DNA of 13,344 nucleotides from an uncultured archaeon (lineage in GTDB: Archaea; Iainarchaeota; Iainarchaeia; Iainarchaeales; Iainarchaeaceae), in the NCBI GenBank assembly GCA_964577555.1, contig CAZNZM010000001.1, forward strand, positions 157,942-171,285, in the 5' to 3' direction. Below are positions 1 to 13,344 of the stretch, piece after piece (within the stretch, counting starts at the first letter, position 1; each line of letters opens with the position of its first letter). The position numbers and the translations under genes are program-made. The notes beneath the pieces were generated by a model. That model searched no databases. It was not told where the DNA came from and saw only the letters and a program-made list of their open reading frames with translations.

Positions 1-233
1 TCAAGTTGTTTTTTTTGTTTGTTTTTGGTGAGCCATTTTTTGTGGTCATTTTTTGCCATTATTTTTTTGTTTTTAGAGGTCATATTTTTATTTTTTTAAC
101 AAATTTGATTTTTTTTGTCTTGGTGTTTTTGTGTGTCAAGTTTTTGGCTTTTTTATTTTTTCGTGGTTTTTTAGAGATTTTGTTTTCTTTTTGGCTAGTT
201 TTGCGGTTTTGTTTTTCGTTTTTTTGTCATTAG
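1..233. repeat. Array of degenerate T-rich repeat units (family with core GGTGAGCC-A-T6-GTGGTCA)
   Basis: Positions 1-55 'tcaagttgttttttttgtttgtttttggtgagccattttttgtggtcatttttt' align closely with 13269-13320 'caagtcgttttttttgtttgtttttttttggcgagccgtttttttgtcattttt'. Weaker copies sit at about 135-165 ('gtcaagtttttggctttttt') and 192-230 ('...cgtttttttgtcat'). Confidence 0.6.
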
Positions 234-238
234 TTCTG

Positions 239-266
239 TTTTAAATTAATTATTATTTATTTATTA
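239..266 (+). promoter_or_regulatory. TATA-box-like AT block upstream of the surface-protein gene
   Basis: 'tttaaattaattattatttatttatta' is the only A-containing AT block in an otherwise T/G spacer. It ends 14 nt before the TTG start. Confidence 0.3.
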
Positions 267-279
267 CGGGTGTTTTTTT

Positions 280-2487
280 TTGGTTAGGTTGTGTTGGTTT
301 GTTTGGTTTGTTTTGTTTTTGCCTTTTTGTTTTTCTACAGCTCCGCAAATAACGTATATTTCTCATTTGCCTGACAAGTGGAATAGTTCTTCAAGTATAA
401 TTGCTAATTTATCTTATCCTGGTGTTGATTATTTTTTAGTTGTTATTGATAAATCTTCTGATACTGTTCCCTCTGAATTAGATGGTCATTCCAAAGTTAT
501 TGAGCCTTCTAATAATAAAGTTGTGCTTGGTACTAAGGATGATGGGGAGTGGTGGGTGCATGTTAGGGCAAAGGCAGGTGGCAAGTTAAGTGATACTGCG
601 CATGTTAAGGTAAAGATTGATTCTGTTGGTCCTTTTTATCCTGGTTCTTTTACTGCTGTTGCTCTTGATGATGGTTCGATTAAGCTTGAATGGTCTGATT
701 CTAAAGATGAAATGTCTGGAGTGGCTTTTTATGATATTTATCGTAGTAATGTTAGATTTGTTACTGAGGAGTTTGGTGGGGTTATAAGGACGAGGGATTT
801 TACAATAAAGGACAAGGTTGTTTCAAAGGTTGCTTCTGGTGTCAAAGGCAATTCTTTTATTGATTCTAATTTTGATAAAGGTAAGGGTTATTATTATCAT
901 TATAAAATTGTAGCTACTGATGGTGCTGGCAATCTTGGCAAGGTCAGTCCTGCTGTTTCTGTCAAGTCTGCTTCTTTTTGTGAGTTTAAGGTTTCCATGG
1001 ATGTTTTGTTGGAAGATTTTGATTTGAAAATTTTGGTAGGCACTTCTCAGAATTTTAGTGGTGGTAAATTAATTGTTACTGATCCTTCTGGTTCAAGTAG
1101 TATTGTTGTTGAGAATGTTTCTGGCAGGAATTCTGTTGATGCTAATTATTCTCTTGAAGGCAAGGTTAATGGCGATTATAATGTGTCGTTTGTTTCTTTT
1201 GATAAGCGTGCTAATATTTGTTCTAAGTCTGTGATATTTTCATATGATACTGTACCCCCTGTCGTGAATTTTTTGAGCCCTGCTAATAATTCTCCTCTTT
1301 CTGGTGTTGTAAAACTTGAAGCTTCTGGTAATGATGGTGGTGTAAATCCTTCTGGCATTGTTTCGTTGTCTTTTTTTATGAAAAAGTCGTCTGGGGAAGT
1401 TAAGATAGGTGATGCTGTTTTTTCTAATGGCAAGTTTTTGTTTGATTGGAATACTTTGGGTTATGAGAATGGCAGGTTTGAGGTTGTTGCAAGGGCGTTT
1501 GATAAGGTTGGTAATAAGGGTGAGGCTTCTAAATCTTTTTCAATTTATAATGCTGATTATATTAAGGTTAGTGTCGCTAGTTATATTGAGGATGCCAATC
1601 GTAAGAGGTCAGAATCTGTTTTGCTTTTGGATTCTCTTTCAAAGAAAGGTATTAATGTAGGCAAGTTGCGTAATATTCTTGTTGGTGCTGATTTGAATTT
1701 TTTTGATGCTGTTTCAATGTTTCAATCTTCTGAGTTTGAATTGGCAAATAATAGGGTTTCAAAGGCTGTTGTTGCGTATGATTATGTTTTGAATGCTGTT
1801 AAGATTGAAAATTATGGTTCTGGTTTGTATTCTTATAATGTTAATCAATTGGATGTTTTGCTTTCTGGTTCTGGTTTGGACAAGTCTCTTGTTCCTGAAG
1901 CTTCTGTTTTAATAAAAAAGTTTAATCCTTCAAGGGTAGTGAATTTGTTAAAAGTTGATTTTGATTCTAATTCGTATTATCTTGCTACTGTTGATGTAGT
2001 GTTTTCTTTGGATGGTAATTTTGGAAAAGTTAAGGTTGTTGAGTTGGTGCCTAAAAAGTTTGTGTCTGATGCTAATATGATTTTTTCTTCTTCTCGTTTT
2101 GAAGTGTTGGATAGGGATCCTGTTTTGTTGTTTTATGTTGATTCTAATTTTGGGAAGGATGTTAATATTACTTATATGATTAATAAAGAGCTTACTAAAA
2201 GTCAGGCTGATGCTTTGTTGGATGCCAATGTTTGGGGTTTGTGGGTTTCGCCGCCTATTTTGGTTTCTGAAAAGTCTGTTGTGAAAGGATTTTCTGGCAA
2301 TTCTGGGGTTAGTAATTTGAATTTGCCTGATTTTAAGATTGAAAAGATTGATAATAAGGTTTGGTTGTTTGGCGGTTTATTTTTGTTTATTGTTTTTATT
2401 TTGTTTATTTTTATTATTGTTTTGGGTGTTGTTGTTTATTATTTGTTTTTCAAGAAGAAAAATGGTGGTTTGCATAGTTTTAGATGA
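280..2487 (+). CDS. Secreted/cell-surface protein: signal peptide, Fn3-like and Ig-like beta-sandwich domains, uncharacterised C-terminal half, C-terminal membrane anchor
   Basis: 735-aa ORF with a TTG start at 280 (alternative in-frame TTG at 289). Hydrophobic N-terminus MVRLCWFVWFVLFLPFCFSTA resembles a signal peptide. 'GSIKLEWSDS...GVAFYDIYRS' is an Fn3-like pattern. 'DTVPPVVNFLSPANNSPLSGVVKLEASGND...ARAFDKVGNKGEAS' is a bacterial-Ig-like pattern. Eight N-x-S/T sequons by hand count. C-terminal hydrophobic helix LFGGLFLFIVFILFIFIIVLGVVVYYLFF is followed by KKK. Confidence 0.75.
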   Translation: MVRLCWFVWFVLFLPFCFSTAPQITYISHLPDKWNSSSSIIANLSYPGVDYFLVVIDKSSDTVPSELDGHSKVIEPSNNKVVLGTKDDGEWWVHVRAKAGGKLSDTAHVKVKIDSVGPFYPGSFTAVALDDGSIKLEWSDSKDEMSGVAFYDIYRSNVRFVTEEFGGVIRTRDFTIKDKVVSKVASGVKGNSFIDSNFDKGKGYYYHYKIVATDGAGNLGKVSPAVSVKSASFCEFKVSMDVLLEDFDLKILVGTSQNFSGGKLIVTDPSGSSSIVVENVSGRNSVDANYSLEGKVNGDYNVSFVSFDKRANICSKSVIFSYDTVPPVVNFLSPANNSPLSGVVKLEASGNDGGVNPSGIVSLSFFMKKSSGEVKIGDAVFSNGKFLFDWNTLGYENGRFEVVARAFDKVGNKGEASKSFSIYNADYIKVSVASYIEDANRKRSESVLLLDSLSKKGINVGKLRNILVGADLNFFDAVSMFQSSEFELANNRVSKAVVAYDYVLNAVKIENYGSGLYSYNVNQLDVLLSGSGLDKSLVPEASVLIKKFNPSRVVNLLKVDFDSNSYYLATVDVVFSLDGNFGKVKVVELVPKKFVSDANMIFSSSRFEVLDRDPVLLFYVDSNFGKDVNITYMINKELTKSQADALLDANVWGLWVSPPILVSEKSVVKGFSGNSGVSNLNLPDFKIEKIDNKVWLFGGLFLFIVFILFIFIIVLGVVVYYLFFKKKNGGLHSFR

Positions 2488-3526
2488 TTATGTCAAGTCT
2501 GTAGTTTCTGAGGTTAATGCTGAGATTTTAAAGTTTTTTCCTAGACGTTTTTCTAAGAAGTGGTGTGAAAGTTCTCTTGGCAATATTGAGTTTGAATTTG
2601 ATTCTGAGGCTTCTCAGAGTGCTTTGTTTGATCCTATTTGGGATTTTTTAGATCGTGGTGGTAAGCGTTGGCGTCCTGCATTGGCTTTGCTTGCGTGTGA
2701 GGCTGTTGGCGGAAAGAGATCAGATGCTATTCCTTATTGTATTATTCCTGAGTTTGTTCATAATGGAACTATAATGGTGGATGATGTTGAGGATAATTCT
2801 GTTTTGAGGCGTGGCAAGCCGTCAACTCATATTTTGTATGGTGTTGATGTTGCGGTTAATGCTGGTAATGCCATGTATTATATTCCTCTTGTGTTGCTTT
2901 TTGGTTCTGGTCTTTCCGATAAAAAGAAGTTGGAGATTTATAATTTGTATGCTAAGTATATGTTGAGGCTTTCTTTTGGACAGGCTTGGGATATTTATTG
3001 GCATCGTGGCAATGGTGTTGTTTCTGAGAAGAAGTATTTGCAGATGTGTGTTTTTAAGACTGGTTCTCTTGCCGCTTTTTCAGCTGGGCTTGGCGGAATA
3101 CTTGGCAATGGTTCTAAAAAGCAGGTTGCTGCTTTGATTCAATTTGCCGAGAGTATTGGTGTTGCGTTTCAGATTCAGGATGATATTTTGAATATTAAAC
3201 CTGAAAATCTTGAATGGGGAAAGGAAATAGGTGATGATATTAAAGAGGGTAAAAGAACTTTGATGGTGGTTCATGCTCTTTCTGTTTTACCCAAATCTGA
3301 AAGAGCCAGGCTTTTAAAAATCATTAATTTGAAGGAAAAGTCTGAAAGTGATGTGGATCATGCAATAAAATTGCTTGAAAAGTCAGGTTCTATTGATTAT
3401 GCAAGGGATTATGCTCGTAGGATTGTTGCAAATAGTTGGAATTCGCTTGATAGGATTTTGCCTGATTCTAAGGCTAAGTTTTTGTTGAAGGATTTTGCTG
3501 ATTATTTGGTTAAAAGAAATATTTGA
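2462..3526 (+). CDS. Short-chain trans-prenyl diphosphate synthase, most likely geranylgeranyl diphosphate synthase (type-III-like)
   Basis: First Asp-rich motif DDVED in 'HNGTIMVDDVEDNSVLRRGKPSTH'; second in 'FQIQDDILN'; 'GKRWRPAL'; 'GQAWDIYW'. From memory, the motif string parallels eukaryote-type GGPP synthases (human GGPS1 'LIDDIEDNSKLRRG...GQGLDIYW...FQIRDD'). The tracked ORF starts at 2339, but its first 41 aa are an F/L-rich out-of-frame reading of the upstream TM anchor. The ATG at 2462 was chosen, giving a 26-nt overlap with the upstream stop. Confidence 0.85.
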   Translation: MVVCIVLDDYVKSVVSEVNAEILKFFPRRFSKKWCESSLGNIEFEFDSEASQSALFDPIWDFLDRGGKRWRPALALLACEAVGGKRSDAIPYCIIPEFVHNGTIMVDDVEDNSVLRRGKPSTHILYGVDVAVNAGNAMYYIPLVLLFGSGLSDKKKLEIYNLYAKYMLRLSFGQAWDIYWHRGNGVVSEKKYLQMCVFKTGSLAAFSAGLGGILGNGSKKQVAALIQFAESIGVAFQIQDDILNIKPENLEWGKEIGDDIKEGKRTLMVVHALSVLPKSERARLLKIINLKEKSESDVDHAIKLLEKSGSIDYARDYARRIVANSWNSLDRILPDSKAKFLLKDFADYLVKRNI

Positions 3527-3535
3527 TTTATTTGA

Positions 3536-3562
3536 TTTTTAGTTGTTTTTTTTATTTTTTTT
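3536..3562 (+). terminator. Oligo-T tracts (T5, T8, T8) downstream of the GGPP synthase gene; archaeal-type intrinsic terminator candidate
   Basis: T5 at 3536-3540, T8 at 3546-3553 and T8 at 3555-3562, all within 40 nt of the TGA at 3524-3526. The whole spacer is T-rich, so specificity is low. Confidence 0.4.
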
Positions 3563-3780
3563 AGTTTTAAAATTCAGTCTGTTTTTTTGCGAGCCTATTT
3601 TGTTTTATTTTTTGTTTTGTTTTTGTGGTGCTGTTGTTTTTAATTGGAAATTATTTTTTTTGATTGTTTTTTTTGTTTGAAATTTTGTTTTTTTTGCGAG
3701 CCATTTTTTTGTGGGGTTGTTTTTTTTATTTATTTTTTTTGAATTGTTTTTTGTTGTTTTTAATTTTTTATGAGCTGTTT
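3541..3780. repeat. Same repeat family, two core copies (GCGAGCC at 3589-3595 and 3696-3702) plus shared sub-motifs
   Basis: 'tttttttgcgagcctattttg' and 'tttttttgcgagccatttttttgtgg'. 'agttgtttttttt' (3541-3553) matches the start of the edge units. 'tttattttttttagttttaaaatt' (3551-3574) matches 7619-7643. A 'gagctgttttt' variant lies at 3772-3782. Confidence 0.6.
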
Positions 3781-4527
3781 TTATACTTCTTCGTATTCTC
3801 TTTCTACTTTGCTTATTATTACTCCTTTTTCTGTTGTTATTTCTACTGGGTGTAGGTCTTCTGAGTGTTTTGTGGCTCGCATTTTTCTTATGTGCATGGT
3901 TCTGTTGCTTCTGCCTGATCCTAATCCCATATAGTGCAGTGTTATTACTCCGTCTGCTACGAATTCTTCTACTCCATATCTGCTGAATTTGTTGTTGCCT
4001 TCTTCTATTTCTGTTATCATTAGTGTTGTTATTCCCATTTTCATTAGTAAGTAGGATAGTTTTAGAATTGCAGCTCTTATTTGGTTGTCGTTTTCAAAAT
4101 TAAATCCTAGTGCTGGTATTGAATCTATGACTATTCTTTTTGCTCCTATTCTTTTTGTTGCTCTTAATATTTCTAAAAGTAATTTGTCTATGTCGAATCC
4201 TGTTGCTGGCATTGAGAATTCTTCTTCGCTTTGAAGCCCTATTTTTGCTATGCTTCCGTCTATTATTTGGAGCATGTTTTGGTTTTCCAGTGTTCTTATG
4301 TCCCATCCGAATCTTAGCATGTCTTGCCTTACTAATTCAGGTCTTTCGTCTAGTGAGACATATATGCCCGGGTCTTTGTATTTTGTGGCCCCCATGTAGA
4401 GGTATTGCATTCCTATTATTGTTTTTCCCGTGCCGCATGCTCCTGAAATTAGTATTGATCTTCCTTCTGGGAACCCTCCTTCTATTAATTCGTCAAGGCC
4501 GGGCACGCCTGTTTTAACTCTGTTCAT
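3781..4527 (-). CDS. Single-domain KaiC-like / RecA-superfamily ATPase (archaeal RAD55/KaiC family)
   Basis: 'GVPGLDELIEGGFPEGRSILISGACGTGKT' is the typical KaiC-family N-terminus with Walker A. 'YVSLDERPE' carries the catalytic Glu region. 'KRIVIDSIPAL' is the Walker B. At 248 aa it has one RecA domain, not the double-domain cyanobacterial KaiC. Confidence 0.85.
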   Translation of the reverse strand: MNRVKTGVPGLDELIEGGFPEGRSILISGACGTGKTIIGMQYLYMGATKYKDPGIYVSLDERPELVRQDMLRFGWDIRTLENQNMLQIIDGSIAKIGLQSEEEFSMPATGFDIDKLLLEILRATKRIGAKRIVIDSIPALGFNFENDNQIRAAILKLSYLLMKMGITTLMITEIEEGNNKFSRYGVEEFVADGVITLHYMGLGSGRSNRTMHIRKMRATKHSEDLHPVEITTEKGVIISKVEREYEEV

Positions 4528-4550
4528 GTTCTCTTTAGATTTTTTTGTGG

Positions 4551-4565
4551 TTTATAATATTTAAA
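4551..4565 (-). promoter_or_regulatory. TATA-box-like element (with purine-rich BRE-like GAAAG upstream) for the KaiC-like gene
   Basis: The - strand reads GAAAG-TTTAAATATTATAAA-23 nt-ATG. This spacing implies a very short or absent 5' leader. No SD motif. Confidence 0.45.
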
Positions 4566-4817
4566 CTTTCTTGATTGTTGTCTTTGGTCAATCATTTATA
4601 AAGTAATGTTGTTGTCCTTTATTTTGTTCTTGTTTTTTTTGTGTTTTTATATATTTGTTTAGATTGAAGTTTGATTTGTCTAGTTTTATTTTTTTGCAGC
4701 AATATGGTTGATTTTGTCGGAAGTAATTATTTGCAAAGCTGATATGTTTAGTAAAATTTTATAGTGTGTTGTGTTGTCTTGTTTAGGAATTATGTGTTTT
4801 GGTGTCAGTTTTGTTAT

Positions 4818-6671
4818 TTATGTTCTTATGACTTCTGTTATTCCTTTTATTTCGTAGAGTTTTTTTTCAAGTTCTTCTATTTGTTGTGTGTTTCTTATTT
4901 TGATTACAAAGTCGCAGATTGTCATGTTTTGGGATATTGTTTTTGCAGATGTTTTTGTTATTTGTATTTTGTTTTTTGCGAAAACATCCAGTATTTCTTT
5001 GAGTATCCCTATTCTTTTGTTTGTTGTTATTTTTATTTCTGTTTCGTATTCTTTTTTTTCGCTACCTGTCCAGGTTACTTCTATATTTTTTGATTTTATT
5101 TTTTCTATTTCCTTGCAGTCTATTCTGTGGACTGATATTTTTCTTTTTGTGGTTTTTATTCCAATTACGTTGTCTCCTGGTATTGGGTTGCAGCATTTTG
5201 CTAATCTTACTCTATTGTCTGTAATTTTTATTGCGTTTTTTTGTATTGTTTTTTTTCTTGGTTTTTCTTCTTTGGTCTTTATGTGTAGCATTGCTCTTAT
5301 TTTTTGTTTTGCTTTTGCTGTTTTGACTAGTGAAAGCCATCCTACTTTTGGGGTTTGTTTTTGCGAGGTTATTATTTCTATTACATCTCCGGTGTATAGT
5401 GTTGTGTTTATTGGGGACATTTTGCCGTTTATTATTGCTTTTTGGCATTTGTTTCCAAGTTCGGTGTGTACTGCGTATGCAAAGTCCAGTGCAGTGGCTC
5501 CTTCTGGTAGTTCTATAATTTCTCCTTTTGGTGTTAGTGTGTATATTTCTTTTGTTAGGGCTTCTATTTTTGTTGTTCCTGTTTCTTTTTGCCATTCTAT
5601 TATTTGTTTTATCCATTCTATTTTTTTGTCGTATTTTGAATCTTTTGTTCCTTTATATTTCCAGTGTGATGCCAATCCGTATTCTGCAAAATTTTGCATT
5701 TCTTTTGTTCTTATTTGTATTTCTATTAGGGTGTTGTTGTCTATTAGTATTGTAGTGTGTAGTGATTTGTATCCGTTTTCTTTTGGTTTTGCTATGTAGT
5801 CGTCGAATTCTCCTGGCAGTGGTTTCCAGAGGCTGTGGACTATTCCCAGTGCTTCATAGCATTCTTTTTCTGTTTCGGTTATTATTCTGAGGGCTATTAT
5901 GTCGTATATTTTTTCTATAGGGCAGTTTTTTCTTATCATTTTTTCATTTGTGCTGTAAGCTGTTTTTATTCTTCCATAAATTGTTGCGTTTATTCCTGCT
6001 TTTGTTAGTTCGTTTTTTAGTCTTTCTTTTGTTGTATTGATTTTTTCAGTTGCTTTTTCTTTTATTTCTGATATTTTTTTTTCTAATTGTGCATATTTTT
6101 GCGGTTCTGTTTCTCTGAATGTTATTTCGTTTATTTCAGAGCTTATGGAGTAAATGCCGAATTTGTGTGCCATTTGGGCGTATATTTCTTTTGCTTGTTT
6201 TAGGAATTTTGTTCTTTCATTTTCTGGTAGTTCTTTTATTTTTCTTGCTTTGTCAAGTGCTTCTGCTAGTTGGAGTATGAATATGTTTGGGTTTGTTGCC
6301 ATTACTATTAGTAGTTTTTTTCTTGTTGTTTCTATGTTGTCGTTTTTTGTTGAAAGTGCTTTTTCAAGTTTTTCTTTTTCGTTGATGATGTTTAGTATTT
6401 GTTGTCCGAATTCGTTTTCTACTTCTTTTTCTGGCAAGCCGAGTGTTGTTAGGTTGTGTATGAATCCTGCTATTATCAATTCTTTTTCCATGCCTATTTC
6501 TAAAAGTATTGTTGCAACTGCTATGTTGTGTCTTGCATATATGTTAAGGTCTTTTTTTCCTATTTTGCATGCTTTAGCCAGTAATTCGTAGCCTTTTTTT
6601 ATTTTTTCTGAATTTCCGAATAGTTTTGCGTATTGTTCTGCAAATTTTTCTGTTTCGGCGTGCATTTCCAT
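4818..6671 (-). CDS. Long RelA/SpoT homologue (RSH), RelA-like: (p)ppGpp synthetase with degenerate HD hydrolase domain plus TGS, Cys-rich zinc-finger and ACT/RRM domains
   Basis: Synthetase motifs: 'GRIKTAYSTNEKM', 'YDIIALRII', 'EFDDYIAKPKENGYKSLHTT', 'IEIQIRTKEMQNFAEYGLASHWKYKG'. TGS: 'IYTLTPKGEIIELPEGATALDFAYAVHTELGNKC...GDVIEIITS'. Zinc-finger/CC: 'CCNPIPGDNVIGIKTTKRKISVHRIDC'. C-terminal ACT-like: 'IKITTNKRIGILKEILDVFAKNKIQI'. The N-terminal HD-like fold has 'FIHNLTTLG' where Rel has 'FLHDVVEDT', and 'QLAEALDKARK' where Rel has 'KLADRLHNMRT'. Confidence 0.85.
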   Translation of the reverse strand: MEMHAETEKFAEQYAKLFGNSEKIKKGYELLAKACKIGKKDLNIYARHNIAVATILLEIGMEKELIIAGFIHNLTTLGLPEKEVENEFGQQILNIINEKEKLEKALSTKNDNIETTRKKLLIVMATNPNIFILQLAEALDKARKIKELPENERTKFLKQAKEIYAQMAHKFGIYSISSEINEITFRETEPQKYAQLEKKISEIKEKATEKINTTKERLKNELTKAGINATIYGRIKTAYSTNEKMIRKNCPIEKIYDIIALRIITETEKECYEALGIVHSLWKPLPGEFDDYIAKPKENGYKSLHTTILIDNNTLIEIQIRTKEMQNFAEYGLASHWKYKGTKDSKYDKKIEWIKQIIEWQKETGTTKIEALTKEIYTLTPKGEIIELPEGATALDFAYAVHTELGNKCQKAIINGKMSPINTTLYTGDVIEIITSQKQTPKVGWLSLVKTAKAKQKIRAMLHIKTKEEKPRKKTIQKNAIKITDNRVRLAKCCNPIPGDNVIGIKTTKRKISVHRIDCKEIEKIKSKNIEVTWTGSEKKEYETEIKITTNKRIGILKEILDVFAKNKIQITKTSAKTISQNMTICDFVIKIRNTQQIEELEKKLYEIKGITEVIRT

Positions 6672-6690
6672 AATAATTTTACTCTTTTAG

Positions 6691-6700
6691 CTTTATTTTA
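6691..6700 (-). promoter_or_regulatory. TATA-box-like element for the RSH gene
   Basis: The - strand reads TAAAATAAAG, centred about 25 nt upstream of the ATG at 6671. No SD motif. The A-rich background makes this weak. Confidence 0.3.
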
Positions 6701-6817
6701 GGTTTTGCGTGTTATTGTAAATCTTTGAATTGAACTAATGTGAGGTGTAGCGTCTCTCTTAAAGGTTTTGGAGGTTGGTTTGTATTTTTATTCTGGTGGT
6801 TTTTTTTGGTTTGTTTT

Positions 6818-6840
6818 TTATTTTAATCGTATTATTTAAT
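6818..6840 (+). promoter_or_regulatory. TATA-box-like region for tpiA (divergent from the RSH promoter)
   Basis: 'ttattttaatcgtattatttaat' lies 18-40 nt upstream of the TTG start at 6858. Confidence 0.3.
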
Positions 6841-6857
6841 TTGTTGGTGAGTTTTTT

Positions 6858-7544
6858 TTGAACTTTCTTTTTGTTAATTTTAAAACTTATGCTGATTCTA
6901 CTGGTTCTAAAGCTCTTGGTCTTGCAAAGTTGTTGGCTACTTTTCAGAGTGGGGAAGTCGATATTATTCCAGTTGTTCAAGTTGTTGATTTAAGGGAAAT
7001 AGCTAGTAATGTTCCGCTTAAGGTTTTTGCTCAGCACGTTGATCCTATTTCTTATGGCGCTCATACTGGGCATGTTCTTCCAGAGGCTCTTGTTGAGGCA
7101 GGCGCTTTTGGTGTAGTGGTAAATCATGCTGAAAACAAGCGTGGTGATGATTTTGTTGAAAGAGTTGTTGGTAGATGTCATGATGTTGGTCTTAAGGTAA
7201 TGGTTTGTGCTGAGTCTATTGATAGGGCCAGGGTTCTTGCAAGGTTTTCTCCGGATTTTTTGGCTGTAGAACCTCCTGAATTGATTGGTGGTAGTGTTAG
7301 TGTTAGTACTGCAAAGCCTGAATTGATTTCTGATTGTGTGAAGTTGATTCGCGAGGTAGATCCAAAAGTAAAGGTTATAACTGGTGCAGGTATTAAGGAT
7401 TCTGCTGATGTTTCTAAAGCTATTGAATTGGGTACTTCAGGTGTTTTTGTTGCTTCTGGCGTGGTTTGTGCTAAGGATAAGGAGTATGCTTTGAGGCGGT
7501 TGTTGTCAGGTTTTCCTGTGAAGTTTGGTCGTGTAATGCCTTGA
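6858..7544 (+). CDS. tpiA: Triosephosphate isomerase, archaeal short type
   Basis: 228 aa. 'VNFKTY' (catalytic Lys region), 'VVNHAENK' (His region) and 'AVEPPELIGG' (catalytic Glu in the archaeal EPPELIG context rather than bacterial YEPVWAIGTG). TTG start at 6858 gives an N-terminus (MNFLFVNFKTY) that matches archaeal TIMs. Confidence 0.85.
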   Translation: MNFLFVNFKTYADSTGSKALGLAKLLATFQSGEVDIIPVVQVVDLREIASNVPLKVFAQHVDPISYGAHTGHVLPEALVEAGAFGVVVNHAENKRGDDFVERVVGRCHDVGLKVMVCAESIDRARVLARFSPDFLAVEPPELIGGSVSVSTAKPELISDCVKLIREVDPKVKVITGAGIKDSADVSKAIELGTSGVFVASGVVCAKDKEYALRRLLSGFPVKFGRVMP

Positions 7545-7551
7545 TTTTTTT
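7545..7551 (+). terminator. T7 tract immediately after the tpiA stop codon
   Basis: TGA (7542-7544) is followed directly by ttttttt. Further T-runs follow. Confidence 0.4.
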
Positions 7552-7650
7552 GTGAGCCAATTTTTTCTTATTTTTTTGATTGTTTTTTTTGTTTTTGTGA
7601 GCCGTTTTTTTGTCAATTTTTATTTTTTTTTAGTTTAAAATTTGTTTTTT
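7545..7650. repeat. Same repeat family, two core copies (GTGAGCC at 7552-7558 and 7597-7603)
   Basis: 7604-7631 'gtttttttgtcaatttttattttttttt' is nearly identical to 13002-13029 'gttttttttgtcaatttttatttttttt', with a 19-nt exact core GTCAATTTTTATTTTTTTT. Confidence 0.65.
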
Positions 7651-7710
7651 TTTGATTAGTTGGCTTTTTTGTGTATTCATTTTTGGCTTGCTACAATTTG
7701 CTTTTTTTTG

Positions 7711-8115
7711 TTAAATTGTTATTTTTGTTTCTGTTTTTTTGTTTTTATTTTTTAAGTATTCTATAATTCCTGTTTTTAGTATTGTTAGTCCAAGTAAGGC
7801 GCATTTTTGTCTTGTTTGTATGATGTTTCCTAGTTTTTCAAAAAGATTTTCAGGTGTTATTTGCATTACTTCTTCGATCTTTTTTTCTTTTGCCATTTCA
7901 GTAAGAATTGCAGCTGATGCTGTGCTTATGGCGCAGCCTTTTGATTGGAATTTGATTTCTTCAATTTTTTGGTTTTTTGTTTTAATGTATATTATTATTT
8001 GGTCTCCACATGTTGGATTTCCTCCGCTTGCTGTTATGTCAGAGTTGTCTATTTTTCCTTTGTTAGGCGGGTTTTTGTAGAGTTCAATTATTGTTTCTGA
8101 GAACAGTTCTGTCAT
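7711..8115 (-). CDS. sufU: Fe-S cluster scaffold / sulfur acceptor, SufU/IscU family
   Basis: 'GGNPTCGD', 'KGCAISTAS' and 'RQKCALLGL' supply three conserved Cys plus the CGD Asp. ATG at 8115 is preferred: it lies 1 nt after the sufS TAA and has GGTG 8 nt upstream. The ORF track extends to a GTG at 8124. Confidence 0.8.
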   Translation of the reverse strand: MTELFSETIIELYKNPPNKGKIDNSDITASGGNPTCGDQIIIYIKTKNQKIEEIKFQSKGCAISTASAAILTEMAKEKKIEEVMQITPENLFEKLGNIIQTRQKCALLGLTILKTGIIEYLKNKNKKTETKITI

Positions 8116-8116
8116 T

Positions 8117-9331
8117 TTAAACACCGAAAATTTTTTTGGTTTCTTCTATGCCTTCTGCTAGCGCGTCAATGTCTTTTGTAGTATTATAAATGTAAAATGA
8201 GGCTCTTGCTATTGCTTCTGTTCCTATTTCGTTTAGGAGTGGTTGTGCGCAGTGGTTTCCTGTTCTTATTGCAATTCCTTTGTTGTCAAGTATTGTTGCA
8301 ATATCGTGTGGGTGTATGTTGTCTAGGTTAAAGGATATTATGCCTGTTTTTTGTCCTTTTGGGATGTAGGTTTTGATTCCTTTTATTTCATTTATTCTTT
8401 TTGTTGAGTATTTTATTAGTTTTTTTTCGTGTTCTGCAATGTTTTCCATGTTTATTTTTTTTAGGTAGTCCATTGCTTTTGAAAAGCCTATTGCTCCTCC
8501 TACGTTTGGTGTTCCAGCTTCGTATTTCCATGGCAATTTGTTCCATTCTGATTTTTGAAGTGTTACTGTTGTAATCATGTCGCCCCCTGTAAGGAATGGA
8601 GGTAGTTTTTCTAAATGTTCTTTTTTTCCATATAGGACTCCTATTCCCATTGGGCCAAGCATTTTGTGTGCTGAAAATGCGAGGAAGTCTAAGTCTGTTT
8701 TTTTTGCGTTTATTTCAATATGTGGAATAGCTTGTGCTCCGTCTGCAATTGTAAGTATTCCTTTTTCTTTTGCTATTTTGCATATTTCTTTTGCTGGTGT
8801 TATTGTTCCCAATATGTTTGATGCCATTGTGAAAGCTATTATTTTGGTTTTTTTGTTTATTTTTTTTTCAAGGTCGTTTAGGTCTATTGTAAGTTCTTTT
8901 GTAATGTTTGCGTAGTTTAGTTTTATTTTTTTTCTTTTTGCTAATTGTTGCCACGGAACTATATTGGCGTGGTGTTCCATTTTTGTTAGTAATATTTCAT
9001 CTCCTCTTTTTAATTTGCTTTCTAATACGTATGATAATAGGTTCAGGCTTTCGGTAGCGTTTTTTGTGAATATTACTTCTTGCATGTCTCTTGCTCTTAT
9101 GAATTTTGCAGTTTTTTCATGTGCTTCTTCGTACATTTCTGTGGCTTTTTGGCTTAGAAAATTCATTCCCCTGTGTATGTTGGAGTTTGTTTCTTCGTAG
9201 AATTTTTTTTCCGCTTGGATTACTTCTAATGGTTTTTGAGTTGTTGCTGCGTTGTCTAAGTAAATTATTTTTTTTCCGTTTATTTTTTTTGAAAAAATAG
9301 GAAAATCTTTTTTGATTTTTTCAGGGTTCAT
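8117..9331 (-). CDS. sufS: Cysteine desulfurase, group II (SufS-type, PLP-dependent)
   Basis: 'FSAHKMLGPMGIGVLYG' (PLP Lys) and 'RTGNHCAQPL' (catalytic Cys loop; canonical RxGHHCAQP). 404 aa. Position between sufD and sufU. Confidence 0.9.
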   Translation of the reverse strand: MNPEKIKKDFPIFSKKINGKKIIYLDNAATTQKPLEVIQAEKKFYEETNSNIHRGMNFLSQKATEMYEEAHEKTAKFIRARDMQEVIFTKNATESLNLLSYVLESKLKRGDEILLTKMEHHANIVPWQQLAKRKKIKLNYANITKELTIDLNDLEKKINKKTKIIAFTMASNILGTITPAKEICKIAKEKGILTIADGAQAIPHIEINAKKTDLDFLAFSAHKMLGPMGIGVLYGKKEHLEKLPPFLTGGDMITTVTLQKSEWNKLPWKYEAGTPNVGGAIGFSKAMDYLKKINMENIAEHEKKLIKYSTKRINEIKGIKTYIPKGQKTGIISFNLDNIHPHDIATILDNKGIAIRTGNHCAQPLLNEIGTEAIARASFYIYNTTKDIDALAEGIEETKKIFGV

Positions 9332-9333
9332 GT

Positions 9334-10395
9334 TCAGAGCCTTTTTTCTATTTCTTCTTCTAGTTCTTGTTTTATACTGTCAGCCAGTTCAAAGATAATG
9401 CTTTCGAGGAAGCTTTTTACTATTATTTTTTTTGCTTGTTCTTTTTCTATGCCTCTTGATTGTAAATAAAATAATTCTTCTTCTGATATATGCGCTATTG
9501 TTGCTGAGTGGGTTGCTTTTACGTCATCTGTTTTTATTTCAAGGCTTGGTATTTGGTTGTTTGTTGCTTGTTCACCTAACAGCATTCCGTGGCATTCCAA
9601 TAGTGCGTTTGTTTTTTCTGCTTTTTCTTCTATTTTTATCATTCCTTCAAAAGTGTTTTTGCTTTGGTCTTTCATTGCGGATTTGAAAATGCAGTGGCTT
9701 TTTGTGTTTTTTCCTCTGTGTATTGCTGAATAGTTTATGTTGAAGTTTTGGTTTTTTGTTCCTATTAGAAAGCTGTAGTCTTTGCTTTCTGAACCGTCTC
9801 CGTGCATTATTATTTGGGTGTTTGAATATGTTGTTGTTCCTTGGCTCCACGAGTCTGATTTGATTAGTTTTGAGTCTTTGCCTAGTATGAATTGCCTGTG
9901 TATGATTATTTCACCTTGCGGTTTTGTTTTTCTCGCATAGTTTACTATTGAATTTTCTCCTATTATGAACGTTTCAGAAAGTATTGATTCTTTTTCTGCA
10001 ACGTGTTCTTCAATTATTGTTATTTCGCAATTTTTTGGGACTATTATTATTGCTTTTGAAGTTGTTTTTTCTTTTGAAATTATTTTTATATTGGTTTTTT
10101 TTCTGTTTGTTGATTCTTTTATTATTATTGCTGTTGCTTTTTCTATTGCAGAGTTTCCTTTTGCTTGGTATTGGTCTTTTGGAGGTTCTTCTAAGCTTAT
10201 TGTTTGAATTAATTGGTTGTCTTCTGCTTGGTCTTTAATTGTTGCATCTTTTTTGTTTATTTTTATCTCTGGTTTTTCTATTTTGGCTTTTTGGATTATT
10301 TCGTCCAGTTTTGTTGTGCTTATATATTTGCTTTTTTTTAATGGTTTTTGTATAAGTATTTCAAGGTTTTTTTTCAAGTATTGGATTTTGTCCAT
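9334..10395 (-). CDS. sufD: Fe-S cluster assembly protein SufD (short, divergent N-terminus)
   Basis: C-terminal 'VKATHSATIAHISEEELFYLQSRGIEKEQAKKIIVKSF' is the SufB/D family signature. Its ATG overlaps the sufB stop by 1 nt (TAATG). 353 aa, with a K/I/E-rich poorly conserved N-terminal part. Confidence 0.8.
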   Translation of the reverse strand: MDKIQYLKKNLEILIQKPLKKSKYISTTKLDEIIQKAKIEKPEIKINKKDATIKDQAEDNQLIQTISLEEPPKDQYQAKGNSAIEKATAIIIKESTNRKKTNIKIISKEKTTSKAIIIVPKNCEITIIEEHVAEKESILSETFIIGENSIVNYARKTKPQGEIIIHRQFILGKDSKLIKSDSWSQGTTTYSNTQIIMHGDGSESKDYSFLIGTKNQNFNINYSAIHRGKNTKSHCIFKSAMKDQSKNTFEGMIKIEEKAEKTNALLECHGMLLGEQATNNQIPSLEIKTDDVKATHSATIAHISEEELFYLQSRGIEKEQAKKIIVKSFLESIIFELADSIKQELEEEIEKRL

Positions 10396-11810
10396 TATCC
10401 CACCGAGTTTTCCATTTCCATTTCTATTAGCCTGTTTAGTTCTACCGCGTATTCAAGTGGAAGTGTTTTTGCAAATGGCTGTATAAAACCCATTACTATC
10501 ATTGTTATTGCTTCAGTTTCGCTTAAGCCTCTTGTCATTAAGTAGAATATTTCTTCTTCTCCTATTTTTCCTACTCTTGCTTCGTGTGCTATCGTGGCTG
10601 TTGGTTCATCTATTTCGATGTATGGGTATGTGTCTGTTCTGGATTTGTTGTCAAGTATTAGTGCATCGCAATTTACATTGCTTTTTACTCCTTTGCATCC
10701 TTTTACTACTTTAAGTAGTCCTCGGTAGCTTGTTCTTCCACCGTCTTTGCTTATGCTTTTGCTTGTTATTCTGCTTGTGGTGTTTGGTGCTAAGTGTATT
10801 ATTTTTGCTCCTGCGTCTTGGTGTTGTCCTTTTCCGGCTAGTGCTATTGATAATACTTCTCCTTTGGCTCCTTCTCCCATTAAGTATATTGCAGGATATT
10901 TTTGTGTTACTTTGCTTCCTAGGTTGCCGTCTACCCATTCAATTATTGCATTTTTGTATGCAAATGCTCTTTTTGTCACTAGGTTGTAGATGTTGTTTGC
11001 CCAATTTTGTATTGTAGTGTATCTTATAGTGGCATTTTCTTTTGCTATTACTTCTACTACTGCAGCGTGGAGCGATTGTGTTGAAAATCTTGGGGCTGTG
11101 CATCCTTCTATGTAATGTACTTGGCTTCCTTCTTCTGCGATTATCAGCGTTCTTTCGAATTGTCCGAAGCTTTCTGCGTTTATTCTGAAATAGGCTTGAA
11201 GCGGTATTTCTACTTTGACATTTTTTGGTACGTATACGAATGAGCCGCCTGACCATACTGCTGTGTTTAGTGCTGCAAATTTGTTGTCGTTTAGTGGCAC
11301 TACTTTTCCGAAATGTTCTTTTACTATTTCAGGGTATTTTTTTAGCCCTTCGTCCATTGACAGGAATATAACTCCTTGTTTTTCAAGGTCTTTTCTTATG
11401 TTGTGGTACATTACTTCTGAGTCGTATTGTGCGCCAACCCCTGCAAGTATTTTTCTTTCCGCTTCAGGTATTCCTAGCCTTTCAAATGTTTCTTTTACTT
11501 CTTTTGGGACGTCTTCCCATTTTTTTTTGTTTGCATCTGATGCTTTCATATAATATATTATTTCGTCAAAATCAATGTCGTTTAGATTCGCTCCCCATTC
11601 TGGCATCGGCTTTTCCATAAATGATTTTAAGGCTTTTAGTCTTATGTCAAGCATCCATTTTGGCTCTTTTTTTATTTCGGATATTTTTCTTACTGTTTCT
11701 TCGTTGAGTCCTTTTTTGAATATTACTTCGTAATTTTTTGTTCCATAGTTGAAATCGTATTTTTGGTATTCTATCGTTGCTATTTTTTTTTCTTTTGTTC
11801 TTGTGTCCAT
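10395..11810 (-). CDS. sufB: Fe-S cluster assembly scaffold SufB
   Basis: '[23 protein letters not shown]', '[26 protein letters not shown]'. 471 aa. AGGTGA SD-like motif upstream of the ATG. Confidence 0.92.
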
Positions 11811-11812
11811 TT

Positions 11813-12574
11813 TTATTCACCTTGTATTTTTAGTGGTTGGATTATTCCAGAGTATCCTTTTTCTTCAAGTTCGTCTGCTAGTTCTATTCCGCCAGATTTT
11901 ATTATTTTTCCGTGTGACATTATGTGGACTTTGTCTGGTTTCAGGTGGTTGAGTATTCTTTTATAGTGTGTTATGATTATTGCTCCAAATTCTGGGCTTC
12001 GCATTTTTTGTATTGATTGTGCCACTAATTTGAGTGAGTCTATGTCTAATCCTGAGTCTGTTTCGTCGAGTATTGCTATTTTTGGTTTTAATATAATTAG
12101 TTGCAGTATTTCTGCTCTTTTTTTTTCTCCTCCTGAGAATCCTACGTTTAGTTCCCTTTCGATAAAGTCGTCTTTCATTTCAAGTATTTTTGCCGCTTCT
12201 TTTATTTTTTCTCTGAATTTTATGATTGTGTCTGTTGAGAGTGGATTTTGTGCTTTATAGGCTGCATATAAAAATTTTGAGAATGTTAGTCCAGGTATTT
12301 CAAATGGGTATTGGAATGACATGAATAATCCTAATTTTGCCCTTTCATTCGGTTGCAGTTCGTTAATTTTTTTTCCGTTAAAAATTATTTCTCCTGAGTA
12401 TATTGTGTATTTTGGGTTTCCCATTATTATGTTGGCTAGTGTGCTTTTTCCGGTGCCGTTTGGACCCATTATTGCGTGTATTTCTCCTGTTTTTGTTGTC
12501 AGGTTCATTCCTTTGATTATTTCTTTTCCTTCTATTCCTGCGTGGAGGTTTTTTATTTCAAGTGTGTGTGTCAT
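11813..12574 (-). CDS. sufC: Fe-S cluster assembly ATPase SufC (ABC-type)
   Basis: Walker A 'GPNGTGKST', ABC signature 'FSGGEKKR', Walker B '[12 protein letters not shown]', H-loop 'IIITHY'. 253 aa. Confidence 0.92.
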
Positions 12575-12921
12575 ATTCGTGCCTCTGTGATTTTCATTCC
12601 TGCTTTTGAAAGCATTTCGCTGGAAGCGTCAAATTCTTTGCAAACAAAGCATAGTTTGTTTATTCCTTTTTCTGATTGCATTATCATGTCTGCCATTTGT
12701 TTTATTTTTTGTATGTCTTTTTGGTTGAATTTGTAGTTGCCTCCTCTTTTGTGCTTTATGTATTGGCATACTGCCGCTTCTGTAATTCCGAGTTTTTTTG
12801 CTATTGTTTTTCTTGGTATTTTTTTTTCAATAGCTAGGTATTTTGCTATTTCTCTTCTTACTGCTGGCATTACTTGCCAGCTTACTATTTCGCATGGGAA
12901 TACTATGCCCAATTCAACCAC
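12571..12921 (-). CDS. Small helix-turn-helix transcriptional regulator with four Cys; first gene of the suf operon
   Basis: 116 aa with a GTG start. 'PRKTIAKKLGITEAAVCQYIKHKRG' is an XRE/sigma-like HTH. 'PCEIVSWQVMPAVRREIA' is the N-terminal motif I associate with small archaeal HTH proteins (family assignment unverified). Cys at about aa 10, 52, 91 and 94 (CFVC). Its stop overlaps the sufC ATG (ATGA). Confidence 0.7.
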   Translation of the reverse strand: MVELGIVFPCEIVSWQVMPAVRREIAKYLAIEKKIPRKTIAKKLGITEAAVCQYIKHKRGGNYKFNQKDIQKIKQMADMIMQSEKGINKLCFVCKEFDASSEMLSKAGMKITEARI

Positions 12922-12923
12922 CT

Positions 12924-12939
12924 ATTAACATGCGTTAAT
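12924..12939. promoter_or_regulatory. Perfect inverted repeat ATTAAC-N4-GTTAAT; candidate operator of the suf regulator
   Basis: 'attaac atgc gttaat' has 6-bp arms and a 4-bp spacer. It lies between the TATA-like box and the start codon, 3-18 nt upstream of the GTG. Confidence 0.4.
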
Positions 12940-12944
12940 GAGTG

Positions 12945-12952
12945 TTTTTATT
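12945..12952 (-). promoter_or_regulatory. TATA-box-like element for the suf operon
   Basis: The - strand reads AATAAAAA, centred about 27 nt upstream of the GTG start at 12921. This is consistent with a leaderless transcript. Confidence 0.35.
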
Positions 12953-13148
12953 CTTTCTGGTTCGTTTTTGAAGTCATTTTTTTAGTCTAATTTTTGGAGC
13001 TGTTTTTTTTGTCAATTTTTATTTTTTTTAATTTGTTTTTTGAAGGATTTTTTTGTTTTTTGTATGTTGTTTTTTTTAATTTGAAAATTGTTTTTTTTGT
13101 GGGCTTTTTTTTAGACAATTTTTGTTTTTTTTTTGGTTTGAAGTTTTG

Positions 13149-13203
13149 TTTTTTTTGGCGAGCCGTTTTTTTGTCATTTTTCTTTTTTTTTTGAATTCTT
13201 TTT
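13149..13203. repeat. Exact 55-bp direct repeat, copy A
   Basis: 'ttttttttggcgagccgtttttttgtcatttttctttttttttttgaattcttttt' is identical to 13290-13344. The offset is 141 bp (47 codons). Confidence 0.9.
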
Positions 13204-13289
13204 TTTTGTCAAGTTGTTTTTTTGTTGTTTGTTTTTTGAGTTGTTTTTTTATTTTTTTCATTTTTTTGCAAGTCGTTTTTTTTGTTTGT

Positions 13290-13344
13290 TTTTTTTTGGC
13301 GAGCCGTTTTTTTGTCATTTTTCTTTTTTTTTTGAATTCTTTTT
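13290..13344. repeat. Exact 55-bp direct repeat, copy B (truncated by the window end)
   Basis: Identical to 13149-13203. Identity may continue beyond the window. Confidence 0.9.

Follow-up and report, generated by a model that had tools for sequence, protein, structure and literature searches.

A compact long RSH with a degenerate hydrolase site and a predicted synthetase-only function in a Diapherotrites/Iainarchaeota archaeon

Introduction

The closest described relatives of the gene considered here are the long RelA/SpoT homologues (RSHs) of bacteria. RelA of the beta- and gammaproteobacteria, represented by E. coli RelA (5IQR, 5KPS), has an intact (p)ppGpp synthetase domain (SYNTH), a degenerate HD domain kept as a scaffold, an EXDD charge motif, and a C-terminal region in which a TGS domain with a CCA-sensing histidine (H432) is followed by a zinc finger with a CC motif (C612/C613) and an ACT domain. 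In this study, we analysed a 13,344-nucleotide stretch of contig CAZNZM010000001.1 (hereafter, the window) from an uncultured Diapherotrites/Iainarchaeota (DPANN) archaeon, in which the minus-strand gene at 4818–6671 encodes a compact long RSH that shares all of these features, with H402 and C493/C494 in the corresponding positions. Its domain order is also that of the bifunctional Rel proteins (RelSeq, 1VJ7; B. subtilis, 6YXA; mycobacterial, 8FR8; T. thermophilus, 6S2T), from which it differs in having lost the hydrolase residues, in carrying EFDD rather than RFKD and in the deletion of the AH domain, whereas E. coli RelA differs from it in length (744 versus 617 amino acids), in retaining the AH domain and in its bacterial host, the partner ribosome of the window protein being archaeal. 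We consider it likely that this protein makes (p)ppGpp and that its HD domain is a non-hydrolytic scaffold.

To our knowledge, the alarmone has never been detected in Archaea, and archaeal use of (p)ppGpp has been an open question since the 1990s. The original prediction for this gene, made from the sequence alone, assumed that long RSHs are rare in Archaea. This premise traces to a 2011 census (PMC3153485) and is outdated for DPANN archaea: Li et al. 2021 (PMC8407392) reported RelA/SpoT from Diapherotrites (69.0% of genomes), Woesearchaeota (41.7%), Pacearchaeota (21.3%) and Nanoarchaeota (19.0%), with a predicted bacterial origin, and our own sample contained 117 compact RSHs. Long RSHs are thus common in the very lineage to which the window belongs, an outcome that the original prediction had itself set down as counting against it. 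At the level of presence or absence, the genes of Li et al. are the same as those analysed here; the retrieved main text of that article gives them one sentence and a supplementary tree, and mentions neither hydrolase decay nor EXDD, AH deletion or KaiC pairing. Our literature searches for an earlier description of a dead hydrolase, AH loss or KaiC pairing in archaeal RSHs returned only this article, and archaeal long RSHs do not figure in the main-text passages of the 2019 RSH update (bioRxiv 575399) retrieved by term search. That DPANN archaea carry this gene family has been published before; what appears to be undescribed is that an entire Iainarchaeota/Diapherotrites clade has converged on a RelA-like state, that AH has been lost throughout the family and that a KaiC-like partner is conserved.

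Results

A complete long RSH with five domains

The open reading frame (ORF) at 4818–6671 of the minus strand starts with ATG and includes its stop codon, representing a complete RSH gene of 617 amino acids; the ORF list and the translation agreed exactly with the coordinates and length first proposed. The protein was characterized from its translation with Pfam, NCBIfam, phmmer against the PDB, AlphaFold2 and Foldseek. Its domains follow in the order pseudo-HD, SYNTH, TGS, Cys/His zinc finger (ZFD/RIS) and ACT: an HD_4 pseudo-hydrolase domain (residues 39–173, 6153–6557, minus strand as for all features of this gene; Pfam E 3e-20), a RelA_SpoT (p)ppGpp synthetase domain (residues 233–343, 5643–5975; E 2.5e-40), a TGS domain (residues 377–435, 5367–5543; E 9e-20), the zinc finger located by alignment (residues 488–535, 5067–5210, with the pattern C493 C494 ... 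H515 ... C519) and an ACT (RRM-like) domain (residues 539–616, 4824–5057; Pfam ACT_4 E 4e-14). An HD-family domain followed by a RelA_SpoT domain, the arrangement of a long RSH, was evident both from Pfam and from the superposition of the N-terminal half described below. The matches of the RSH to these profiles are strong and far beyond chance. A small alarmone synthetase (SAS) was considered as an alternative identity and ruled out by the five domains, the matches to SAS being weak (NF053588, 38 bits; 5ded, E 1e-7).

Among the NCBIfam models, the protein scored 499.9 bits against TIGR00691 (spoT_relA; cut-off 499.2) and failed both equivalogs, reaching 365.4 bits for RelA (NF008124; cut-off 728) and 343 bits for SpoT (NF008303; cut-off 947). 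The top sequence match in the PDB was mycobacterial Rel (8fr8, E 1.8e-100), followed by E. coli RelA (5iqr, E 3e-99). The AlphaFold2 model (mean pLDDT 86.3, pTM 0.64) folded all five domains confidently, including an ACT domain of beta-alpha-beta-beta-alpha-beta topology at a pLDDT of about 90 or higher. Foldseek ranked RelA on the 70S ribosome first for this model (E 4e-39), E. coli RelA being the best full-length structural match. Its N-terminal half superposed on the fold of bifunctional Rel with a TM-score of up to 0.87, the value obtained for S. aureus Rel (7oiw, rmsd 3.0 Å).

The synthetase is intact, and the hydrolase site is degenerate

Residue states were read from MAFFT alignments of 192 and then 333 long RSHs, in which the charge motif, the spacing between the end of TGS and the CC motif, and nine hydrolase positions were scored; we take the numbering of these positions (R44, H53, H77, D78, E81, D82, D144, R145 and N148) to be of the RelSeq type. 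Invariance refers below to a set of 70 archaeal and bacterial sequences. In the synthetase domain, R234, K236, K244, D257, R262, K297, Y301, H305, E317 and Q319 were invariant. The acidic charge motif E288-F-D-D291 (EXDD; 5799–5810), seen in the translation and in a motif census, directly precedes DYIAKPKENGY within GEFDDYIAKPKENGYKSLHTT, whose RelA counterpart in the alignment is DEFDDYVANPKPNGYQSIHT. The intact synthetase motifs and the EFDD had been recognized in the original prediction, and every string quoted there was found in the translation.

The HD domain, by contrast, has lost catalytic residues. The HD/ED motif is degenerate (H72 N73 L74 T75 T76 L77 at 6441–6458, against H-D-x-x-E-D in functional enzymes), as is the second hydrolase motif (E137 A138 L139 D140 K141 at 6249–6263, against D-R-L-H-N). 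In the HMMER alignment with mycobacterial Rel 8fr8, 'IHNLTTLG' lies opposite 'LHDTVEDTG' and 'AEALDKARK' opposite 'ADRLHNMRT', and the pairing in MAFFT was identical, confirming the replacements that had been noticed by eye (HN for HD, 'TTLG' for 'VEDT', and 'AEALDKARK' for 'ADRLHNMRT'). Across the nine positions the window protein reads KHHNTLEAK, whereas RHHDEDDRN was found in 184 of the 216 non-compact (bacterial-length) RSHs; the changes are HD to HN, ED to TL, D to E and N to K (D78N, E81T, D82L, D144E and N148K), with H48 and H72 retained. The catalytic set of a bifunctional Rel/SpoT enzyme (H..HD..ED..D..N) is consequently broken. Overall, the profile searches and alignments bore out the first description of the gene as a long RSH with intact synthetase motifs, EXDD and a degenerate hydrolase site.

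The site strings vary among the relatives that share this degenerate state (for example NTLEAK, NDHEMK and PNIDIT), and Pfam PF01966 (HD) matched relatives with an intact HD domain but not the degenerate clade. Because the replacements differ from member to member, they point to relaxed constraint on the site and loss of catalysis rather than to a new conserved site. Mean pairwise identity in the pseudo-HD domain was 0.28 in the degenerate clade (73 sequences), compared with 0.56 in compact RSHs with an intact HD domain and 0.52 in bacterial Rel; in the same three groups it was 0.55, 0.62 and 0.55 for SYNTH, 0.56, 0.59 and 0.54 for TGS, and 0.53, 0.43 and 0.46 for the zinc finger. The fold is nevertheless preserved, without its chemistry, given that the pseudo-HD residues were mostly modelled at a pLDDT above 90 and superposed on Rel as described. 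In addition, comparison with a 91%-identical orthologue (L095) yielded a dN/dS of 0.135 overall, 0.10 for pseudo-HD, 0.09 for SYNTH and 0.09 for TGS, values that place the pseudo-HD domain under purifying selection, which is what one would expect if it served as a scaffold with a structural or regulatory role.

The EXDD motif, together with a degenerate HD domain, had been taken to mark RelA-type, monofunctional enzymes. RFKD was present in 145 of the 216 non-compact RSHs and EFDD in 59 of the 96 compact RSHs with a degenerate HD domain, and a Pseudoalteromonas RelA (L032) combines EFDD with the hydrolase string EATPLSQQL. However, EFDD also accompanies an intact RHHDEDDRN in Chloroflexi-type Rel (L001, L012, L037, L044, L076 and P0071–P0074) and in archaeal RSHs (P0056, P0057, P0059, P0064, P0066, P0070 and P0095). 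Since these proteins pair EFDD with an intact HD domain, the motif does not track hydrolase loss one-to-one, and EXDD by itself is no marker of a dead hydrolase or of monofunctionality.

The putative tRNA-sensing elements are conserved, and the AH domain is deleted

In the C-terminal region, H402 of TGS was invariant and aligned with H432 of E. coli RelA (5iqr), and the zinc-finger ligands C493, C494, H515 and C519 were likewise invariant, with C493/C494 of 'CCNPIPGD...VHRIDC' aligned with C612/C613 of E. coli RelA. Pfam and the alignment therefore agree with the TGS, Cys-rich and ACT-like domains proposed at the outset. The regulatory region thus retains TGS, ZFD/RIS and ACT; the AH domain, a helical domain of ~80–90 residues that lies between TGS and the zinc finger, is absent. 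The RelA_AH_RIS profile matched residues 437–527 (E 9.3e-06) with only its second half (profile positions 95–180 of 185). In place of AH there is a residual connector (residues 438–487, 5211–5360), defined by the alignment and the AlphaFold2 model, in which two short helices (443–447 and 452–462) precede a disordered stretch with a pLDDT below 50 (467–476). From a conserved Trp (W445; W475 in RelA) to the CC motif (C493; C612 in RelA) there are 48 residues in the window protein, 137 in E. coli RelA and 120–158 in the bacterial Rel proteins sampled. This deletion, which accounts for the compactness of the 617-residue protein, is essentially complete, and all compact archaeal RSHs share the lack of AH; the original prediction had the length right, but the absence of AH had escaped it.

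A connector of intermediate length (72–83 residues) was observed in P0149, P0156, P0163, P0190, P0243 and P0267, which have an intact HD domain and RFKD-type motifs and group with bacterial-length proteins in a neighbour-joining (NJ) tree. In these proteins, part of AH may have been lost separately, in a lineage other than this one.

Degenerate compact RSHs form a clade of archaeal proteins

We defined compact RSHs by a TGS-to-CC connector of less than ~65 residues, and all members examined were located on archaeal contigs. The 117 compact RSHs in the sample comprised 96 with a degenerate hydrolase site, including the 59 with EFDD, and 21 with an intact one. In the NJ tree (167 sequences, 639 columns and 200 bootstraps; numpy implementation), the window protein fell within a 25-member clade recovered in 100% of bootstraps, itself nested in a clade (86%) of 73 non-redundant compact RSHs that all have a degenerate HD domain and mostly carry EFDD. 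It belongs with the compact family by its 48-residue connector, its archaeal context and this clustering. The intact-HD compact RSHs form a separate clade (93%). These proteins of other DPANN archaea (P0054, P0056 and P0061; L090 and L091) lack AH as the window protein does, with connectors of 55–62 residues, and share 34–37% identity with it, but they retain the full RHHDEDD[RK]N set, carry RFKD or EFDD and have no KaiC-like neighbour. Their context is archaeal (Cdc6, archease/RtcB, eIF2-gamma and S6e): P0061 adjoins archease, RtcB and Cdc6, and the genes around P0056 include those for eIF2-gamma and ribosomal protein S6e.

The gammaproteobacterial RelA (L032) branched among bacterial Rel, far from the window clade. 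As the window protein lies outside the surroundings of L032 and also failed NF008124, orthology with RelA is not supported, and its RelA-like state is convergent rather than inherited from RelA. The description of the protein as RelA-type therefore held for the features that predict function but not for descent, given the equivalog score of 365 against 728 and the clustering with archaeal compact RSHs. The closest homologues were proteins of 612–640 residues from metagenome-assembled genomes (MAGs) labelled 'archaeon' or 'Candidatus Diapherotrites archaeon', and one match in the genome collection was labelled 'Candidatus Iainarchaeum archaeon'. When the genome collection was scanned with the family alignment, L002, L003 and L005 were the only archaeal loci among the matches listed, the rest being bacterial Rel.

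The RSH gene is a long-standing resident of an archaeal neighbourhood

An identical RSH is encoded on four independent metagenome contigs of this species, the longest of 84 kb. Besides the RSH gene, the window has genes for an archaeal-type triosephosphate isomerase (TIM), a KaiC-like ATPase and an IdsA-like prenyl synthase; Trm56, an archaeal tRNA methyltransferase, is encoded in the contig extension, together with SerRS and class-I LysRS. The TIM gene (6858–7544, plus strand; NF003302, 248 bits against a cut-off of 132; also supported by synteny) is the divergent upstream neighbour of the RSH gene and adjoins it in most relatives. The conserved order is HTH, SufCBDSU, TIM (divergent), RSH, KaiC-like, IdsA, surface protein and LysRS, and it is kept in relatives whose RSH is 42–58% identical and whose neighbouring proteins are 47–82% identical. 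The syntenic MAGs are labelled Candidatus Diapherotrites or Iainarchaeum, and Pus10 is also among the archaeal context genes. The conserved order in relatives indicates that the RSH gene is a long-standing archaeal resident, neither a contaminant nor a recent transfer, and the doubt initially expressed about the archaeal nature of the contig is settled by this synteny together with Trm56, class-I LysRS and the archaeal TIM.

Besides the RSH, no Pfam match to a hydrolase or HD protein was obtained in 10 of the 11 coding ORFs of the window (SufC was not scanned), in agreement with the earlier remark that no hydrolase is visible there.

A KaiC-like ATPase gene lies directly downstream

Downstream of the RSH gene, on the same strand, lies a gene for a single-domain KaiC-like (RecA-superfamily) ATPase of 248 amino acids (3781–4527, minus strand; Pfam KaiC E 1e-73). 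The ORF list and Pfam thus reproduce the arrangement first described, including the 290-bp spacer (4528–4817, minus strand), although 'signalling', as the ATPase had been called, is an assumption about a KaiC-like protein. Direct reading of the extremely AT-rich spacer revealed a TATA-like TTTAAATATT (4565–4556), 29–38 nucleotides ahead of the KaiC ATG, which is a putative promoter element. A promoter of its own for the KaiC-like gene, as had been suggested, is not established, the gaps in relatives being only 40–78 bp. A scan for bacterial-type signals gave 9 promoters (8.0 expected) and 2 terminators (2.2 expected) in the window, bacterial models being uninformative for an archaeon.

The KaiC-like gene directly follows the RSH gene on the same strand at six loci: the window (290 bp), L095 (~70 bp), L085 (78 bp), L089 (40 bp), L093 (47 bp) and L002 (~60 bp). 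The KaiC-like orthologues are 64–75% identical, above the identity of the RSHs (34–58%). At L093, the pair persists though both outer flanks are unlike the usual neighbourhood. At L086–L088 and L094, an opposite-strand MacB/FtsX-ABC-CARDB cassette separates the two genes, and at L092 no KaiC gene was found within 6 kb of the RSH gene; L090, L091, L003 and L005, the four loci whose RSH falls outside the clade, likewise showed no KaiC-like gene near it. The adjacency suggests a functional link, with general conservation of synteny as the alternative.

The cassette, absent from the window, directly follows the RSH gene and consists of a MacB/FtsX permease, an ABC ATPase, a second MacB/FtsX permease and a CARDB-like surface protein (L086 and L087, 11857–16073; L088, 9852–14060; L094, 6986–11152; L092, 7926–12182).

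Discussion

The features described above suggest how the window protein might work. Its SYNTH domain would most likely transfer pyrophosphate from ATP to GDP or GTP, producing (p)ppGpp, and because the metal-binding and catalytic residues of the HD domain are lost, the protein is predicted to be incapable of alarmone hydrolysis, its pseudo-HD domain probably persisting, like that of proteobacterial RelA, as a scaffold with a structural or regulatory role. The compact RSHs would form a family found only in DPANN archaea that has lost the AH domain; within it, the hydrolase would have decayed a single time, in the ancestor of one large clade, with vertical inheritance since, the RSH gene staying between the TIM and KaiC-like genes in this clade. 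The likeliest mode of control is RelA-like: because the zinc finger, ACT and TGS with its CCA-sensing His are as well conserved as their bacterial counterparts, the enzyme would be activated when deacylated tRNA is bound to an archaeal ribosome that has stalled, in a geometry changed by the AH deletion. The KaiC-like ATPase may take part in this control, and a separate enzyme, putatively encoded elsewhere in the genome, would remove the alarmone. Taken as a whole, a genuine Iainarchaeota/Diapherotrites stringent response, in which an AH-less, hydrolase-dead RSH on the archaeal ribosome senses deacylated tRNA through its TGS His and zinc finger and makes (p)ppGpp, with the KaiC-like ATPase cooperating and a non-RSH hydrolase clearing the product, is a tentative proposal, and we would not yet bet on all of its parts holding together.

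Several observations weigh against this proposal or against a synthetase-only enzyme altogether. The activity of every archaeal long RSH is so far predicted only. The window protein exceeded the TIGR00691 cut-off by a margin of only 0.7 bits, and the deep branches of the tree are weak, with 42% bootstrap support for the split of 92 compact from all long sequences. With AH absent, the TGS-to-ZFD spacing is ~90 residues below that of RelA, so that the bacterial ribosome-binding geometry is not simply transferable. No hydrolase partner was found in the ~20-kb flanks at 10 related loci, a search of flanks rather than of whole genomes, and a synthetase without a hydrolase is toxic in bacteria (PMC3153485).

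The neighbouring ATPase raises the question of what controls the synthetase. The RSH and the KaiC-like protein could form a coupled module in which control is exerted mainly by the ATPase rather than by ribosomes, possibly through phosphorylation, ATP-dependent complex formation or the pseudo-HD or ACT domain, with the C-terminal domains serving autoinhibition or oligomerization. The 64–75% identical orthologue directly downstream at six loci with gaps of 40–290 bp, the pair at L093 that is kept despite differing flanks, the absence of the gene beside L090, L091, L003 and L005, and the altered ribosome contacts that AH loss suggests would all fit such a module. However, the whole neighbourhood (Suf operon, TIM, IdsA and surface protein) is syntenic, so that the adjacency may reflect slow rearrangement only; the pair is split by the transporter cassette at four loci and missing at L092; and the invariant TGS His and zinc-finger ligands are what would be expected if tRNA and rRNA contacts were kept. 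We also presume that KaiC-like proteins of ~248 residues may be RadA paralogues acting in repair, which counts against the module. On balance, we regard control mainly by the ATPase as unlikely, though it deserves to be kept in mind beside control by the ribosome. Where the product is concerned, the lack of a visible hydrolase partner would be less puzzling if (p)ppGpp were not what SYNTH makes; some toxic small alarmone synthetases produce (p)ppApp or pyrophosphorylate the 3' ends of tRNA. Such a product seems very improbable here, since K297, N299, Y301 and H305, to which we attribute guanine-nucleotide binding in long RSHs by reference to RelSeq, vary little or not at all, and since the protein resembles long RSHs rather than toxSAS both in architecture and in its closest structural matches.

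Two further readings concern the synthetase-only assignment itself and the origin of the gene. The retention of H48 and H72, the confident prediction of the HD fold and the purifying selection on it could be taken to mean that the protein has remained a bifunctional Rel, with hydrolysis at an active site of non-canonical composition, and NCBI indeed annotates some relatives as 'bifunctional'. Yet five catalytic or metal positions are replaced, differently in each clade member, identity in the pseudo-HD domain is about half that of the intact groups and PF01966 finds no match in the clade, making a surviving hydrolase highly unlikely. It might also be proposed that the gene was acquired horizontally not long ago, or that it is bacterial contamination due to mis-binning of the contig, and in either case uninformative about archaea, given that long RSHs are bacterial in origin overall, that the nearest non-archaeal matches reach 36–40% identity and that Li et al. 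predict acquisition from bacteria (PMC8407392). In this case, however, the gene occupies the same site on four independent assemblies of the species and in relatives down to 34% identity, among flanking genes of archaeal type (Trm56, class-I LysRS, TIM, Pus10, RadA and RPA); its codon and strand composition resembles that of its neighbours, and its clade of 73 has 86% bootstrap support. We give this reading least credence of all, and as a contaminant the gene is already contradicted; a pseudogene was considered and rejected as well.

A long RSH that probably only synthesizes (p)ppGpp thus remains our preferred assignment for the window gene. Its locus indicates that an archaeal lineage keeps a full-length synthetase bearing ribosome-sensor domains under purifying selection, at a fixed chromosomal position across deep divergence (34–58% identity), and that the RelA design of a dead hydrolase with EXDD evolved independently there. 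The organisms are uncultured, and the protein is a concrete candidate with which an archaeal stringent response could be tested; if such a response were real, Archaea would have their first native alarmone system, and the RelA solution would have arisen there independently, by convergence.

Other observations on the neighbourhood and the window

Scans for tRNA and Rfam families in the window found nothing. At the head of the suf operon, the minus-strand ORF at 12571–12921 encodes a 116-residue helix-turn-helix protein with weak Pfam HTH matches, which overlaps the start of sufC by 4 bp, is kept in relatives (62–69% identity) and is a candidate suf regulator. The plus-strand ORF at 280–2487 encodes a predicted surface protein of 735 residues, with an N-terminal hydrophobic signal, a C-terminal membrane anchor and a weak Ig-like Pfam match; it is syntenic in relatives but fast-diverging (28–44% identity), and at its 3' end the gene runs into the longest ORF of the IdsA-like prenyl synthase (2339–3526, plus strand), for which the gene calls of L081 start later (354 residues).

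The class-I LysRS of the conserved neighbourhood is fused to a B3_4 domain at L081 (14220–16541) and L085 (18206–20524), giving proteins of ~772 residues. At L086 (21269–end), the LysRS gene call has 1006 residues and extra AlaRS-like Pfam matches (tRNA-synt_2c and tRNA_SAD), and at L089 the enzyme is plain (530 residues). L089 also encodes an intein-containing anaerobic ribonucleotide reductase NrdD of 1104 residues (1862–5176), and free-standing LAGLIDADG ORFs were found near the RSH neighbourhood at L085 (17321–17980) and L093 (9833–10492).

The whole window (1–13344), like L081–L084 and L095, displays an extreme strand asymmetry irrespective of gene direction. Third codon positions are T 57–64%, A 11–16%, G 20–25% and C 4% in plus-strand genes, and A 60–68%, T 6–14%, C 18–22% and G 5–10% in minus-strand genes, and intergenic plus-strand DNA has T 55–67% and C 4–7%. 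As a result, plus-strand proteins are rich in V, F, G and L, and minus-strand proteins in K, E, I and N. A comparable asymmetry has been described in a CPR Microgenomates genome (PMC7143001). Among the relatives, the asymmetry of the window recurs in L095, the 91% sister species (AT skew 0.51), and is missing from the syntenic loci L085–L089, whose skews are ~0–0.1.

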